DNA from: Akkermansia sp.
GTDB lineage: Bacteria > Verrucomicrobiota > Verrucomicrobiia > Verrucomicrobiales > Akkermansiaceae
Reading direction: 5' to 3'
Assembly (NCBI GenBank): GCA_030525455.1
Contig: JAUNER010000007.1
Span: 23,110-87,109 of the forward strand
DNA length: 64,000 nt
This document shows positions 2,658 through 9,443 of the stretch, one piece after another. The notes beneath the pieces are model-generated. The model was not told the origin of the DNA, did no database searches, and worked only from the letters and a program-made list of their open reading frames with translations. The number at the start of each line of letters is the position of its first letter. The first letter of the stretch is position 1. The position numbers and the translations under genes were made by a program.

Positions 2658-4055
2658 TTAGGAGTGGTGGAAGGCTTGGCCGTCAGCAGGGGACATTTGG
2701 TGGGTGACGGGGTGAGATTTGAAAAAAGCGAGCATACGGCGGAAGTCCTCTAGGAAGAGGGAGGCGAGGTCTTTGGAGAAGCCTTGGCGAACCATGATAC
2801 GCATGACGGTCGTTTGCTGACAGTCAGCAGGGAGAGTAAAGGCCGGGACCTGCCAGCCACGGGTGCGGAGTTTGTCTGACAAATCAAAGAGATTATAGGG
2901 CAGAGTGGAGCCGGGTTTGATAAAGAAGCAGACGGCAGGGATGCCGGATTTTTCATCGCCTGTGCAGATAAACTCGTAAGGGCCTAGTTTACTAATCTCT
3001 GCGGTGAGGAACTTAGCGACTTGGTAGGCCTGGGTGTGGATATTGGTATAGCCCTGACGACCTAGACGGATGAAGTCGTAATACTGACTGATGACCTGCC
3101 CGGCGGGGCGAGAGAAATTAATAGCAAAAGTAGGCACTTCACCGCCAAGGTAGTTGACGTTAAAGACGAGTTCTTGAGGCAGGACGGAAACATCTCGCCA
3201 GACAATCCAGCCACAGCCCAGGGGAGCTAAGCCGTATTTGTGACCGGATGTGCTGATGGATTTTACACGCGGAGTGCGGAAATCGAACTCAATTTCCGGG
3301 GCACAAAAGGGGGCAAGGAAGCCACCGCTCGCGGCATCGACGTGAATATCGACACTAATGCCCGTGCGAGCCTCGAACGAATCGAGAGCCTTGGCGATTT
3401 TATCCGGGAATTCAAATGCACCTGTATAAGTTACGCCGAAAGTAGGCACGACGACGATGGTATTTTCGTCTACTTGCTCGAGCATACGCTGCTCATCCAT
3501 GGCCCATTTGCCCTCTGCCATTGGAATTTCACGCATTTCTACGTCCCAATATCGGCAGAACTTATGCCAGCAAATCTGCACCGGACCGCAGACGAGGTTG
3601 GGCTTATCGGTGGGTTTACCGGCAGCCTTTCTGCGGGCACGCCATCGCCAAAGAGCCGCCATACCGCCAAGCATACAAGCCTCGCTGGAACCAATGGTAG
3701 AGCAACCGATAGGCGTTTCTGAGGGGGAAGCATTCCACAAGTTTGCCAGAATAGCCGCACACCGCATCTCGATAGCGGCGGTTTGGGGGTACTCGTCTTT
3801 GTCAATCATGTTTTTATCGATGCTCAGATCCATGAGCATACGCACTTGTTTTTCATCCCAAGTTTGGCAGAAAGTTGCTAAATTTTGGCGAGCATTGCCA
3901 TCGAGCATTAGCTCATCTGAGACAAGTTGAAAGGCTTCCTCCGGTCGCATCATTTGCTCGGGGAAGTGGTGGCGAGGCAGACTGTTGCAAACTTCAGGAG
4001 AACCGAAAATGGAATGTTGAGCGGTCGCTTGCCGGGGGGGAGTAGGAGTATTCAT
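2658..4055 (-). CDS. gadB: Glutamate decarboxylase
   Basis: [33 protein letters not shown] and the PLP lysine motif STSGHKYGL. Confidence 0.97.
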
Positions 4056-4167
4056 CGTGGTATTTCTATTTCATTGAAAGCCGGGGAAGGGTAGTCCCTG
4101 CATTTAGGGGAATAGAGCCGCTTTTATATAAAGCCGTTCAAAACCGCTGTGTCAGCTTAGTATTCCG

Positions 4168-5232
4168 GGGTGATTAGCGGTGAAGAGTAAGGGGTGTATT
4201 TCTTCCCCCAACCGCAAGCGAATGGGCGAGAGCCTAGTTACAGAGAAACGGAGAGATAGCCCGGTATTTCTCCTAAAACCACGCTCGACACCCAAGCGTT
4301 CACCCGCTGGGAGCACGTAAAGGTCTCCTGACTTTAGCGGTGAGGCTAATCAAGTTTTTATTTGGAACCGGAGCGTTAGCTCCTATTACTTGGAGAAAGG
4401 GCTAATTTGCAGAGATGGCTAGGGCTGGTTATACGCTATTGCTAAAGTCAGGAGACTTTAGCTCCCAGGTAGGCAGCGTGTGCGTTGATTTCTAGGGGAA
4501 TTAGCGTGGGAGCGTGAAGTTTGTAATTTGTCCTCTAACCGCAAACGAATGGGCGTGAGCTTAGTTACAGAGAAACGGAGAGATAGCCAAATATCGTCTT
4601 AAAAGCCTTAGCCGACATCCAAGCGACGAGCACTGGGGACTTCGAGCTCCTGCTCGTAGCAGTGAGGTTAATCAACGGTAAATCTACAGAAACAACCATT
4701 CCCTAGTGACTCCAAACTGTGATTCTCCCTCTGTGGGTATACCTCTGTTGGTTTGGCCACTTTGTGGCAGTTCCGCTTTTGGAGAAGCGGAACAACTAAA
4801 GTCGGGAGACTTTAGTTCCCAGGGATTCAGCGTATGCTCTGTGTTCTTAGGTAATTAGCGGTGGAACGTAAGTGGTGTATTTTGTCCTCTAACCGCAAGC
4901 GTATGGGCGTGAGCCTAGTTACAAAGAAACGCATAAAAACCCGATAAAGCTATCTATCCACGCTCGACACTCAAGCGTTCATCTCGCTGGGAGCTAAAGT
5001 CTCCTGACTTTAGCGGTGAGGTTAACCCAGCTTTTATTTGGAACCGGAGCGTTAGCTCCTATTACTTGGAGAAAGGGCTAATTTGCAGAGATGGCTAGGG
5101 CTGGTTATACGCTATTGCTAAAGTCAGGAGACTTTAGCTCCCAGGGATTCAGCGTATGCTCTGTATTTTTAGGTGATTAGCGGTGAAGCGTGGAGGGGGT
5201 ATTCTGCCCCCCCAACCGCAAGCGACGAGCAC
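4168..5232. repeat. Non-coding tandem array of ~320-355-bp units, each with inverted REP-like hairpin pairs
   Basis: The anchor aaccgcaa occurs at 4210, 4537, 4891 and 5213. The 28-mer ctgggagctaaagtctcctgactttagc or a variant is at 4307, 4633 and 4987, and its reverse complement at 4441, 4795 and 5117. 4356-4469 is identical to 5032-5145. Confidence 0.95.
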
Positions 5233-5303
5233 TAGTGAATACTGTCGAAAGGGGGGAAAGGTTAGGATTGATTTTTAGTGAGGACTTAGGTAGTCTGCAA
5301 AGC

Positions 5304-6092
5304 ATGGATTGGGAGTTAGTACTGGATATACTCCGTGCAATAGTTGAGATAGTGATATTGTGGGTGTTTTTGTACCAAGTGTACAGAGCATTCCATGCTA
5401 CACGAGCCGCACGCATCATGGTAGGGCTATTTGTCTGTTTCTTAGCCTTGGTTGTATTAGCCGGGTTATTTCAATTAAACGTTATTTCGTGGTTATTGAC
5501 GCGAATATTTGGTCCGGGTTTGGCCTTAGCCTTGGTGGTGATTTTCCAGCCTGAATTGCGAGTAGGTTTGGCAAAGCTGGGGAGTCATCCGCTTTTATCC
5601 TCATTTGCGACGTTACACAGAGATGATTTTCTTGATGATTTTTGTAAAGCCGTCAGTAAGCTTTCCAGTCTACATACGGGGGCGATATTTGCCTTTGAGA
5701 GAGGAATTAGTATGAAGCAGATTGAAAATACAGGCATCAAGGTAGATGCTATATTTTCACCGGAGTTGGCCCATACGATATTTTACTCAAAGACGGCTCT
5801 GCATGATGGCGGGGTAGTGATAGCCGGGGATAGAATATCGGCGGCAGGTTGTATCTTCCCTGTATCAAATAAAGAACTCCAAGACAGAACCCTAGGGCTA
5901 CGGCACAGAGCCGGTGTAGGGATGAGTGATGAGGCGGATTGCGTCGTGGTTATCGTCTCTGAAGAAACAGGTTCCATATCAATAGCTTTGGCTGGTAAGC
6001 TAGAAAGAAATTTGACCATAGACCAGCTGAAAGGTCGGCTCCAAGAACTGCTAAACATATCATCGAACAATGAAAAATCTACTGTTGCTTAA
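5304..6092 (+). CDS. cdaA: Membrane diadenylate cyclase CdaA/DacA
   Basis: Three N-terminal TM helices, ALVVIFQPELR, HDGG (DGA-like) and GLRHRA motifs. The likely start is MDWELV at 5304, since the ORF-track start lies in the repeat array. Confidence 0.93.
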   Translation: MDWELVLDILRAIVEIVILWVFLYQVYRAFHATRAARIMVGLFVCFLALVVLAGLFQLNVISWLLTRIFGPGLALALVVIFQPELRVGLAKLGSHPLLSSFATLHRDDFLDDFCKAVSKLSSLHTGAIFAFERGISMKQIENTGIKVDAIFSPELAHTIFYSKTALHDGGVVIAGDRISAAGCIFPVSNKELQDRTLGLRHRAGVGMSDEADCVVVIVSEETGSISIALAGKLERNLTIDQLKGRLQELLNISSNNEKSTVA

Positions 6093-7018: not shown

Positions 7019-8407
7019 CTACCCCAAGCGTGAGGAAGTAAACGCCTCTATAATAGCCCGGTGTACATCCATCGCTGAGTGAACATCAGGCAGTGAGGGC
7101 GGGCAAATAAAAACGGGCTCTTGGTGCGGAGCTACATTATCTCTGCCGTGAGAGCCCTTGACCTGCTTGCCATTAAGAGCAATGACTTTCATTAAGGCAC
7201 GGAAGCCCAGCTTTTTCTTTAATAAAAACCAAGCGGCATGAAGCAGGGGGAATTTAATCTGCGGGTCGAAAAACATTTCTGCCGGGTCATAGCCCGGTTT
7301 GCGATGAATGTCTACACAGCGAGCAAAATCCGGTGCTAGGGCATCATCCAGCCAGTAATAATAGCTGAACCATGTATCGGGTGCGGCAATAGCTGTGAAA
7401 TCCGGTAAGCGGTTTTTTGCCACAGGTGAGAGGGTAGAAAAATCAGTTTCTCTTAGCTCGTCGATACCCGGGGTGTTGAGTAAGAGTTTTTTTACTTCAT
7501 CTTTGATACTTAAATCATTGATATACACGTAGGCTATTTGATGGTCTGCAACGGCAAAGGCTTTTGACGCACCACAATCGAGCATTTCCGTACCCAGCTC
7601 CGGTTTAATGGAAATCCAGCCTTTTTCGCGGAAAAGTCGATTGAGAGCCACATCATGAGTCACGTCACAGATGCCATATTCGCTCACAATGAGAGGAGTA
7701 ACCCCTGCATTTTCCAGAAACTCAATGAGAGACATGACCACATCATCCATTTTTTCTGCCGCTTTTCTTGCCTCGTCAGAAGAGGGACCAAATTTCTGTA
7801 AATCGTAATCTAAGTACGGTAAATAAATGAGAGACAAATGCGGATGATGTTTATCTTCAATCCGGCGAGCCGCATTAGCAATCCACTCTGTAGCCGGCAT
7901 TCCGGCCATAGGCCCCCAAAATGTGGGGAAAGGAAATTCCCCCAGCTCAGCCTTGATGGTCTCTCGCAAATTCATCGGCTGGGTGTAAATGTCAAAAACC
8001 TTGCGTCCATCAGCCGGGTACATTGGGCGTGGGGTAATGGTCCAGTCTGCATCTGCGTACATATTGTACCACCAGAAGAGTTTGGCACAGGTAAACTCTT
8101 TGCCATAAATCTCTTTCAGTTTATTCCAGATACGAGGTCCCTGAACCAATTTATTTGACTGTTTCCAGAATTGGATTTCGCACATTTCGCGGTTATACCA
8201 ACCATTCCCGTAGCAAGCATGGTCAAGAGGTGAGAGCCCGGTGATGTATGTGCTTTGAGTAGAAGTTGTAATAGCCGGGAACGCCGGAGGAAAACTACAC
8301 ACCTTTCTCTGAGCCGCCCAAGTCGACAATCGAGGCATATAGGCTAGAATTTGTCTCGAAAGAGCCACTACGTCGAGAACGGCAACACGTGGAATAGATG
8401 TGCTCAT
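7019..8407 (-). CDS. Alkaline-phosphatase/nucleotide pyrophosphatase family protein (EboF-like)
   Basis: FPAIT..TQ.TY.TG, FWWYNMY, TPRPMYPADGRK, FWGP and RCVDIHRKPGYDPAEMF motifs. Confidence 0.8.
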   Translation of the reverse strand: MSTSIPRVAVLDVVALSRQILAYMPRLSTWAAQRKVCSFPPAFPAITTSTQSTYITGLSPLDHACYGNGWYNREMCEIQFWKQSNKLVQGPRIWNKLKEIYGKEFTCAKLFWWYNMYADADWTITPRPMYPADGRKVFDIYTQPMNLRETIKAELGEFPFPTFWGPMAGMPATEWIANAARRIEDKHHPHLSLIYLPYLDYDLQKFGPSSDEARKAAEKMDDVVMSLIEFLENAGVTPLIVSEYGICDVTHDVALNRLFREKGWISIKPELGTEMLDCGASKAFAVADHQIAYVYINDLSIKDEVKKLLLNTPGIDELRETDFSTLSPVAKNRLPDFTAIAAPDTWFSYYYWLDDALAPDFARCVDIHRKPGYDPAEMFFDPQIKFPLLHAAWFLLKKKLGFRALMKVIALNGKQVKGSHGRDNVAPHQEPVFICPPSLPDVHSAMDVHRAIIEAFTSSRLG

Positions 8408-8485
8408 GGCGTCATATTATTCAAATAATGCAGAAAATCCATCTTTCCATTTGAAAAAGGAAGGTTTTTCCGTCATCATAGGGAC

Positions 8486-9271
8486 ATGGAACGACAGGAT
8501 AACAGACAAGCGGACCAGTTACGCCCGATTGGGTTTCAGACGGGAATCGCCCCCCATGCCACAGCTTCTGTGCTAGTGAATTTCGGGAACACAAAAGTGA
8601 TTTGTGCTGTAACGATAGAAGACGATGTGCCTAGATGGATGAAAGCACAACGCGTAGAAGGTGGCTGGATTACGGCAGAATACTCCATGCTGCCATATTC
8701 CACCCTAGACCGCAAACGTCGCGATATTACAGCCGGTAAGTTAGATGGACGCTCCAGCGAAATCCAGCGTTTGATTGGGCGCTCGCTCCGAGCTGCTGTA
8801 GATTTAAGTAAGTTAGGCTCACGCACGATTTGGATTGACTGCGATGTATTACAGGCAGATGGCGGTACTCGTACAGCCTCTATTACCGGGTCATCCGTCG
8901 CACTAGCCATCGCATTGAATAAGCTAGTGGCAGAAGGTAAATTGGCGGAATCACCGATGAAAAAGCTCGTAGGTGCTGTATCTGTCGGTATCTTAGAAGG
9001 GGAACCATTGCTCGACCTTTGTTATGTAGAAGATAAAGACGCTGAGGTAGATATGAACCTAGTGATGACTGATAGCGGTGAGTTTGTAGAGGTTCAGGGC
9101 TCCGGTGAAGAAGCTGTATTTACCGCTGAACAAATGGCACAAATGTTGGCCTTGGGTAAAAAAGGCTTACAAGAAATTGCTGAACTCCAAAGACAAGCCA
9201 TCGCCGCCGCAGATGTGCCGGACCCGGAAAAACTGGTAGAACTAAGAAATTTCTTTCAAACTAGCAAATAA
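8486..9271 (+). CDS. rph: Ribonuclease PH
   Basis: GWITAEYSMLP, RSSEIQRLIGRSLRA, DVLQADGGTRTASITG. Confidence 0.97.
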   Translation: MERQDNRQADQLRPIGFQTGIAPHATASVLVNFGNTKVICAVTIEDDVPRWMKAQRVEGGWITAEYSMLPYSTLDRKRRDITAGKLDGRSSEIQRLIGRSLRAAVDLSKLGSRTIWIDCDVLQADGGTRTASITGSSVALAIALNKLVAEGKLAESPMKKLVGAVSVGILEGEPLLDLCYVEDKDAEVDMNLVMTDSGEFVEVQGSGEEAVFTAEQMAQMLALGKKGLQEIAELQRQAIAAADVPDPEKLVELRNFFQTSK

Positions 9272-9443
9272 TCAAACGTTTCTATTTGCGTACCGGATGC
9301 GTGGCGGCAGGGCGGTGTCAGAGATAAGTGAAAATTTATGAAGAATATGCTTGTCCTGCACGCAATTTCTAGGTACAAATAGAAACGAACAACAGATAAC
9401 CGCGTGCGGTTTTTCTCAAAATTGTCAACATTAGATAACTCAT

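Follow-up and report, generated by a model that had tools for sequence, protein, structure and literature searches.

A noncoding array in an Akkermansia sp. genome is, in all probability, a cluster of repetitive extragenic palindrome (REP)-type elements in a REP/REPIN system, arranged like the bacterial interspersed mosaic elements (BIMEs), whose family is made, moved, and reshuffled by a REP-associated tyrosine transposase (RAYT) encoded on another contig, C16, of the same assembly. The array covers ~1.1 kb, at positions 4143-5233 of the 64,000-nt stretch analyzed (the window; C20:23110-87109 of a 2.15-Mb, 40-contig assembly, G000), and consists of 3.3 head-to-tail units between a gene for a pyridoxal phosphate (PLP)-dependent decarboxylase and cdaA. 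Since the partner RAYT gene lies between the same hairpins, we regard the array as a further example of an established repeat-plus-enzyme system, new as a member but not in kind. The novelty is limited to the particular family and to its unusually large composite units. The original prediction, made from the window's letters, had called the repeats undescribed; this holds for the family but not for the kind of system, which is well described. The family fits the working definitions of REP/REPIN-RAYT systems, which call for tagged extragenic hairpins, inverted doublets of these, a flanked single-copy Y1 gene, and over-represented flanking 16-mers (PMC3116915, PMC3337134, PMC5581495).

The enzyme gene and its flanking hairpins

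The enzyme, encoded at C16:3705-4298, is an HUH/Y1 protein of 197 amino acids (aa) with a match to Pfam Y1_Tnp (PF01797) at E = 5e-10. Its best NCBIfam model is that of the REP-associated tyrosine transposases (NF047646, 71.3 bits; IS200, 29 bits). In an alignment of 38 homologues, neither the HUH motif (H107-V-H109) nor Y167 or N171 varies. The Y-motif reads Y167-I-R-K-N171-I, with the N kept and the P of the homologue consensus YIHxNPV replaced; Y---NP, as opposed to the Y---Q of IS200, is the signature of class 2 TnpA-Y1 proteins (Quentin 2018, PMC6006769). In a sequence comparison with the PDB, the enzyme is closest to 4ER8, the E. coli TnpA-REP bound to a REP hairpin, with both motifs aligned. 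The same structure is the top Foldseek match of an AlphaFold model of the enzyme (pLDDT 84.5; E = 2e-6; ~16% identity in the structural alignment); the transposases of IS608 and ISDra2 rank behind it. The gene is single-copy, without a near-identical duplicate in the genome.

The position of the gene ties it to the repeats: it occupies the slot that in other units holds a short insert. A hairpin whose loop and right flank are of the left type (C16:3551-3572, TCCT) precedes it, a right hairpin (4365-4392, AGGA + TCCCAG) follows it, and array units continue on either side. One of the two insert types found in the arrays (type 1) retains ~20 nt of the left and ~60 nt of the right flank of the gene, which indicates that the doublets are internally deleted copies of the gene module. 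The occurrence of the enzyme gene in the slot of a nonautonomous insert is direct evidence that the doublets originated from the gene module. An autonomous insertion sequence (IS) of the IS200/IS605 type was ruled out, because the hairpins are inverted copies of one another and the gene is single-copy.

Three more Y1_Tnp genes are present in the genome, at C34:34419-35459, C15:8039-9154, and C28:41102-42673 (frames of 346, 371, and 523 aa, respectively). The frame on C28 runs into an rsmH-like methyltransferase frame, and weak matches to the three genes in some congeners hint at orthologues. We ruled out a link between these genes and the hairpins: they are distant paralogues, and none adjoins the hairpins.

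Anatomy of the array and spread of the family

A repeat search of the window gives start-to-start spacings of 327, 354, and 323 bp, in agreement with the predicted ~330-bp units, and inverted arms of 45-48 nt, 81%-82% complementary, with 68-130 nt of insert between them. The window has four sites with the core CTAAAGTCnnnnGACTTTAG (0.02 expected), and all of them are inside the array. The predicted limits, 4168-5232, were roughly right, the homology extending slightly further, from near 4143 to near 5233. Unit copies in the window are ~80%-88% alike; Tandem Repeats Finder reported nothing on the array, because the copies are too diverged. As predicted, there is no credible open reading frame (ORF), the largest being 44-54 aa. 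With no ORF >54 aa, and with indels between copies whose lengths are not multiples of three, a decayed protein-coding repeat is ruled out. The coordinates of all features are collected in Table 1.

Each unit comprises a left hairpin, an insert, and an inverted copy of the hairpin, followed by a conserved linker of ~165 nt. The left element consists of an unpaired 5′ tag (CTGGGA or CTGGGG) and a hairpin with a stem of 9 bp and a TCCT loop (TCCY across the family); the right element reads, on the plus strand, as stem, AGGA or GGGA loop, stem, and TCCCAG, so that its tag and hairpin are read on the minus strand. There are two main hairpin types that share tag and loop. The stem of the first is GCTAAAGTC/GACTTTAGC, and that of the second CTTCGAGC/GCTCGTAG, with a conserved T.T mismatch; the changes between them are compensatory. 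A weakly folding variant of the first type is also present. The original description of a 28-nt left element plus its inverted copy in every unit is therefore right as to the inverted hairpin pairs but not as to their uniformity: the left element of unit 1 is the variant, which carries a bulged G and an inserted ACG (−2.9 kcal/mol, z = 0.17), and that of unit 2 is of the second type.

The inserts likewise are not of one kind. There are two unrelated types, of ~100 nt and ~133-140 nt, the window's unit 2 carrying one of the longer kind (133 nt). Every pairing of hairpin type with insert type occurs across units, which makes the units mosaics; the right element of unit 2, for example, is a first-type hairpin in the slot normally held by the second type. 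The linker has conserved blocks (ATTAGCGG, AACCGCAAGCG, the F box GGGCGWGAGCCTAGTTACAGAGAAACG, and CGACACCCAAGCG) amid variable stretches. In the last linker copy, the 8 nt that follow AACCGCAAGCGA (CGAGCACT) match the sequence preceding second-type left hairpins. Among aligned units, mean pairwise identity is 0.90-0.98 in the hairpins and the 32 nt beside the right hairpin, and 0.65-0.77 in the variable parts of the linker.

Variable inserts between imperfect inverted repeats that fold in single-stranded DNA (ssDNA) have the look of cassettes, and the hairpin pairs might be taken for attC-like sites in an integron-like array served by a tyrosine recombinase. We consider this extremely unlikely. 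The inserts carry no genes, the arrays are dispersed over ~10 loci and not gathered beside a single integrase and attI, and the sole enzyme inside an array is the HUH/Y1 protein; no integrase was seen among the flanking ORFs examined, a genome-wide integrase scan not having been made.

Single hairpins of the main types fold at −8.5 to −8.6 kcal/mol, and the doublet at 4980-5150 gives a single long hairpin as ssDNA (−43.3 kcal/mol, z = −8.6; arms of 48 nt, 81% complementary). Stable hairpins and compensatory stem changes might also be expected of a tandem structured noncoding RNA locus, in which the units are transcribed, the hairpins act in RNA, for example as stabilizers, terminators, or regulators of gadB or cdaA, and the Y1 enzyme is incidental. 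E. coli REPs affect mRNA stability, and several of the arrays start right after intrinsic terminators, running in the direction of the upstream gene. However, hairpins acting as DNA predict compensatory changes equally well. Rfam gave no match for the window array at E up to 1, nor for five other array loci at E up to 0.1, and a promoter scan of 3900-5500 found no sigma-70-like site. The frame hairpin of the original prediction (ttagcggt...aaccgc), which falls in the linker, has no consistent structure (z = −0.1 to −2.8). Such a locus also leaves aside that the enzyme gene occupies an insert slot and that its homologues across phyla have the same tagged hairpins. The RNA or cassette alternative of the original prediction is thus without support, and we judge an RNA function of this kind very unlikely to be what the array is for.

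Table 1. Features of the array and flanking genes (window coordinates)
Feature	Position	Strand	Description
Whole array	4143..5233	+	Four linker copies (first and last truncated) alternating with three inverted-hairpin doublets
Linker copy 0	4143..4306	+	Starts at the position expected for sequence immediately 3′ of a right hairpin
Linker copy 0, blocks	4173-4180; 4210-4220; 4224-4242; 4286-4298	+	ATTAGCGG; AACCGCAAGCG; F box GGGCGAGAGCCTAGTTACA; CGACACCCAAGCG
Unit 1 left REP-like element	4307..4338	+	CTGGGA, then variant GC-ACG-TAAAGGTC-TCCT-GACTTTAGC
Insert type 1	4339..4440	+	~100 nt; both ends match the flanks of the C16 RAYT gene
Insert type 1, small hairpin	4370-4383	+	GGAGCGTTAGCTCC
Insert type 1, block	4409-4440	+	GCAGAGATGGCTAGGGCTGGTTATACGCTATT; most conserved part of the unit
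Unit 1 right REP-like element	4441..4468	+	GCTAAAGTC-AGGA-GACTTTAGC + TCCCAG; inverted copy of the left element
Linker copy 1	4469..4632	+	
Unit 2 left REP-like element	4633..4661	+	Second type: CTGGGG, then A-CTTCGAGC-TCCT-GCTCGTAG-C
Insert type 2	4662..4794	+	133 nt; unrelated to type 1 save for a GTGAGGYTAA box
Insert type 2, terminal hairpin	4770-4793	+	GTTCCGCTTTTGGAGAAGCGGAAC
Unit 2 right REP-like element	4795..4822	+	ACTAAAGTC-GGGA-GACTTTAGT + TCCCAG
Linker copy 2	4823..4986	+	
Unit 3 left REP-like element	4987..5014	+	CTGGGA + GCTAAAGTC-TCCT-GACTTTAGC; −8.6 kcal/mol as ssDNA
Insert type 1, second copy	5015..5116	+	
Unit 3 right REP-like element	5117..5144	+	
Linker copy 3	5145..5233	+	Truncated after AACCGCAAGCGA (5214-5225)
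Left flanking gene	2658..4055	−	PLP-dependent (glutamate-type) decarboxylase, divergent from the array
Right flanking gene	5304..6092	+	Diadenylate cyclase CdaA; ATG at 5304, longer frame from GTG at 5190

The 28-mer is absent from the remainder of the window, as had been noted, though a tagged-hairpin pattern scan of the genome finds 26 copies, against none for the reversed control. All types taken together, there are roughly 53 tagged hairpins (27 of the first type, 10 of its variant, and ~16 of the second), with the tag always 5′ of the TCCY loop. They lie in ~10 arrays (C7, C12, C13, C16 [two], C19, C20, C24 [two], C26, and C38), with unit fragments on C28, C30, and C40. The assembly breaks at the repeats, four arrays being located at contig ends; this is the practical side of their presence. 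The hairpins are extragenic: no array overlaps a convincing gene, with the exception of one ORF start at the end of the C7 array. The 16-mers that flank the enzyme gene occur 22-24 times in the genome, where only the repeat of a CRISPR-like array is commoner; the corresponding figures in one of the papers cited above for the working definitions are ~5 for housekeeping genes and 25-32 for insertion sequences. BLAST searches of the unit against plasmid and phage collections gave no match, which makes known IS or phage ends in those collections unlikely. In the closest relative (G007), a different gene stands upstream of cdaA, and there is therefore no orthologous empty site.

Units from separate loci are mostly 85%-89% identical, with a few pairs at 93%-96%, and three arrays have a left flank in common. 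Both observations could be accommodated by a passive satellite that slippage and unequal crossing-over had built up, that segmental duplication or homologous recombination had dispersed, and in which the Y1 gene landed by chance. Yet the ~10 array loci have unrelated flanks, conservation is concentrated in the hairpins and the block adjacent to the right hairpin over the rest of the unit, and a left hairpin and a right hairpin delimit the enzyme gene exactly, its flanks being kept in the insert. A satellite of this origin is in our view very improbable.

Several further observations concern the wider repeat landscape of the genome. The ATG of the ORF at the end of the C7 array (C7:1732-2418, 228 aa) falls in insert type 1, within its conserved block (gcagagATGGCT), and the 5′ end of the gene may be supplied, or have been replaced, by the array. 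There are ~11 copies of a third hairpin module, CCGGACCA-TTGGGC-TTTA-GCCCAA (e.g., C19:647, C24:86090, C28:58144, C36:59396, C38:46608, C15:104236, and C34:9477), often after a left hairpin and a GTGAGGCTAA box, and often at array ends or solitary. Contigs C7, C13, and C26 share a start of ~60 nt (cctcatggtagaaatactatgaggctcgttctgtttt..., a terminator-like hairpin; C7:1-70, C13:1-78, C26:1-73), after which the array follows; the common start probably marks where the end of a larger repeat, for example an rRNA operon, was collapsed. At C30:22918-23100 and C40:20180-20307, a second-type right hairpin has an identical 19-nt insertion (GAACCGCAGGTGAGCGTGT) in its 3′ arm. The CRISPR-like array, which supplies the genome's most frequent 16-mers, has 30 copies of a 36-nt repeat (GTTTTGCCTTGAATCCAAAGCTTAGTAAGGTATAAC) at a 66-bp period (C24, ~7289-9382).

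Hairpins and enzyme in the genus and in other phyla

Among 151 species of the genus, the tagged hairpin of G000 is found in this one only: its 26 matches have no counterpart elsewhere, and the reversed control again gives none. Unit DNA was not found in 40 related genomes. The enzyme (E up to 1e-10) is present in two of the 151 species. In the second, G138, the gene is 45% identical and is flanked by tagged hairpins of its own (locus L121, C20:38700-39800 of that genome), in units that read GAAGGCC-GGGA-GGCCTTC-aTTCCCAG, ~95 nt, TGGGAAC-AAGGGCC-TCCC-GGCCCTT. This hairpin has 59 dispersed copies in the G138 genome, the only one in which it was counted. G138 is GC-rich, and its tandem units are of ~120 bp, with two tagged hairpins facing each other over a 95-nt linker. 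The occurrence of the enzyme in two of 151 species, each with its own hairpin family, argues for acquisition or repeated loss and against long vertical inheritance of the kind seen in Pseudomonas.

Further homologues, 35%-45% identical, are found in Acidobacteriota, Planctomycetota, Chloroflexota, Verrucomicrobiota, and other phyla. Hairpins with a YGGGA tag were searched for within 450 nt of the genes at the 79 homologue loci that have enough flank: there is one upstream in 40, downstream in 33, and on both sides in 24, whereas windows 2 kb away give 4, 3, and 0, respectively. In an alignment of 17 of these hairpins, the CC of the loop is invariant and nine out of nine stem pairs covary, although the script that chose the hairpins required pairing, so that independent evidence comes only from the loop, the spacing of the tag, and the length of the stem. 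Of two complete genomes with a homologue, one has 16 hairpins, 10 of them clustered around the gene, and the other has 13 at five loci, mostly in inverted doublets ~133 nt apart (one ~77 nt).

The recurrence of gene and tagged hairpins together in G138 and in other phyla is a further point against the chance landing of a Y1 gene in a satellite. The original prediction had included a REPIN-like family, set in a larger frame and mobilized in trans by a RAYT-type HUH enzyme. This part of it is supported by the C16 gene between the same hairpins, by the co-occurrence of enzyme and hairpins in the genus, and by the same hairpin layout beside homologues in other phyla.

In public assemblies, exact-protein look-ups returned only short contigs ending at the repeats, of which one, L119, was informative; neither the tagged hairpin nor the F box had an exact-pattern match in JGI metagenome contigs.

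Mechanism and comparison with known systems

By analogy with E. coli TnpA-REP and with IS200/IS605, the C16 enzyme would bind the folded hairpin and its tag on ssDNA, most likely on the lagging-strand template, and would cut and rejoin the DNA beside the hairpin. A single RAYT/TnpA-REP-type HUH tyrosine enzyme would in this way make, move, and reshuffle the whole family. The short insert represents an internally deleted enzyme gene module, and the doublets are therefore nonautonomous derivatives resembling miniature inverted-repeat transposable elements.

Traces of rearrangement are visible at the hairpins themselves. Hybrid hairpins are found at C16:3551 and C24:80494; in these, the flank on the left comes from a right element and the flank on the right from a left element. 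In another public sample, a 903-bp contig encodes an identical protein, with an intact left element directly left of the gene and a hybrid hairpin on its right, the reverse of the arrangement in G000. With the hybrid on opposite sides of an identical gene in the two samples, it is evident that rearrangement at the hairpins has taken place in this locus, an indirect sign of mobility. A satellite could yield hybrid hairpins too, through recombination between 22-bp direct repeats.

The top strand of the array is the G-rich strand in 11 out of 13 loci (P ∼ 0.02, binomial test), a bias that is weakly consistent with action on the lagging-strand template. Local GC skew is strong around the 13 array loci (0.07-0.18 absolute, in 20-kb flanks), so that replication strands could be told apart in a closed assembly. 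On the right, arrays in six loci stop at the F box (GGGCGAGAG), to within 2-3 nt, whereas left ends are spread across the unit; on C19 the third hairpin module is inserted at the same F-box point of the linker. These features hint at another possibility: that the 330-bp composite unit, and not the doublet, is the replicating entity, copied in a polar, one-ended (rolling-circle-like) manner into its own F box (GGGCGAGAGC) and so building head-to-tail arrays. We think this unlikely.

A number of observations weigh against the assignment to a REP/REPIN-RAYT system. At 71 bits, the enzyme falls under the NCBIfam cut-off of 80, and its Y-motif is Y-I-R-K-N-I and not Y---NP. The tag is CTGG(GA/GG) and not the canonical GT[AG]G, the flanks of homologues having YGGGA; it is similar to the GTGG/GTAG tags without being the same. 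Copy number is modest (~50 hairpins), and since units differ by 11%-15% between loci, most copies are not recent. The array ends are heterogeneous, and the orientation bias is itself weak, three of the loci sharing a flank and perhaps not being independent. Finally, the linker is as much repeated as the doublet, which simple REPIN transposition leaves unexplained.

Work on REP/REPIN-RAYT systems has been confined almost wholly to Proteobacteria, and the family described here is a clean example in what appears to be a small-genome member of the Verrucomicrobiota. The tag, 9-bp stem, and TCCY loop that recur beside homologues in Acidobacteriota, Planctomycetota, Chloroflexota, and other phyla point to a broad, little-described clade of RAYTs with recognizable substrates.

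In architecture, the array resembles E. coli BIME-2, in which inverted REPs alternate with two kinds of conserved linker in a unit of ~100 bp. Both are tandem arrays of alternating orientation with two conserved spacer classes and mosaic hairpin subtypes. The likeness is architectural only: there is no sequence relationship, the unit here is of ~330 bp (approximately three times the scale), and one spacer slot can hold the enzyme gene. With the REP/REPIN and RAYT systems of E. coli and Pseudomonas (PMC3116915, PMC3337134, PMC3479197), the family shares tagged extragenic hairpins in inverted doublets, each doublet folding as a single long hairpin; an HUH/Y1 gene that is present once and has the same hairpins, inverted, on its two sides; species-specific hairpin families; and over-represented flanking 16-mers. 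It differs from them in its verrucomicrobial host, a placement to which PEP-CTERM proteins and the relatives point, in its AT-rich stem, in its CTGGGA/CTGGGG tag, in doublet spacers of 100-140 nt, much longer than is usual, and in having only ~50 hairpins.

Outside the Proteobacteria, RAYT-like genes flanked by inverted repeats have been described as TIRtrons or TIRYT (Di Nocera et al. 2013, PMC3733652). They are similar to the present case in that they are found notably in Acidobacteria and Planctomycetes and in that their inverted repeats form small families of dimers and clusters. The enzyme also resembles class 2 TnpA-Y1 proteins in its HuH motif and in a Y---N motif ~58 residues away (Quentin et al. 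2018, PMC6006769). However, it is short (197 aa) and lacks the C-terminal helix-turn-helix domain of subclass 2.1/TIRYT, and its clade has tagged hairpins, whereas no REP-like structures were reported beside the genes of the large subclass 2.1 (Quentin et al. 2018, PMC6006769). A W..DR..R block resembles that of subclasses 2.5 and 2.7 (PMC6006769), a likeness on which we base no subclass assignment.

The remaining comparison is with IS200/IS605 and its hairpin-ended derivatives. Common to both are a Y1 HUH enzyme, subterminal ssDNA hairpins, internally deleted nonautonomous copies, and a suggested bias for the lagging-strand template. In contrast to IS200/IS605, the hairpins here are inverted with respect to each other instead of being copies on the same strand, there is one copy of the gene and no tnpB, and the Y-motif has the REP-type form Y---N and not Y---Q.

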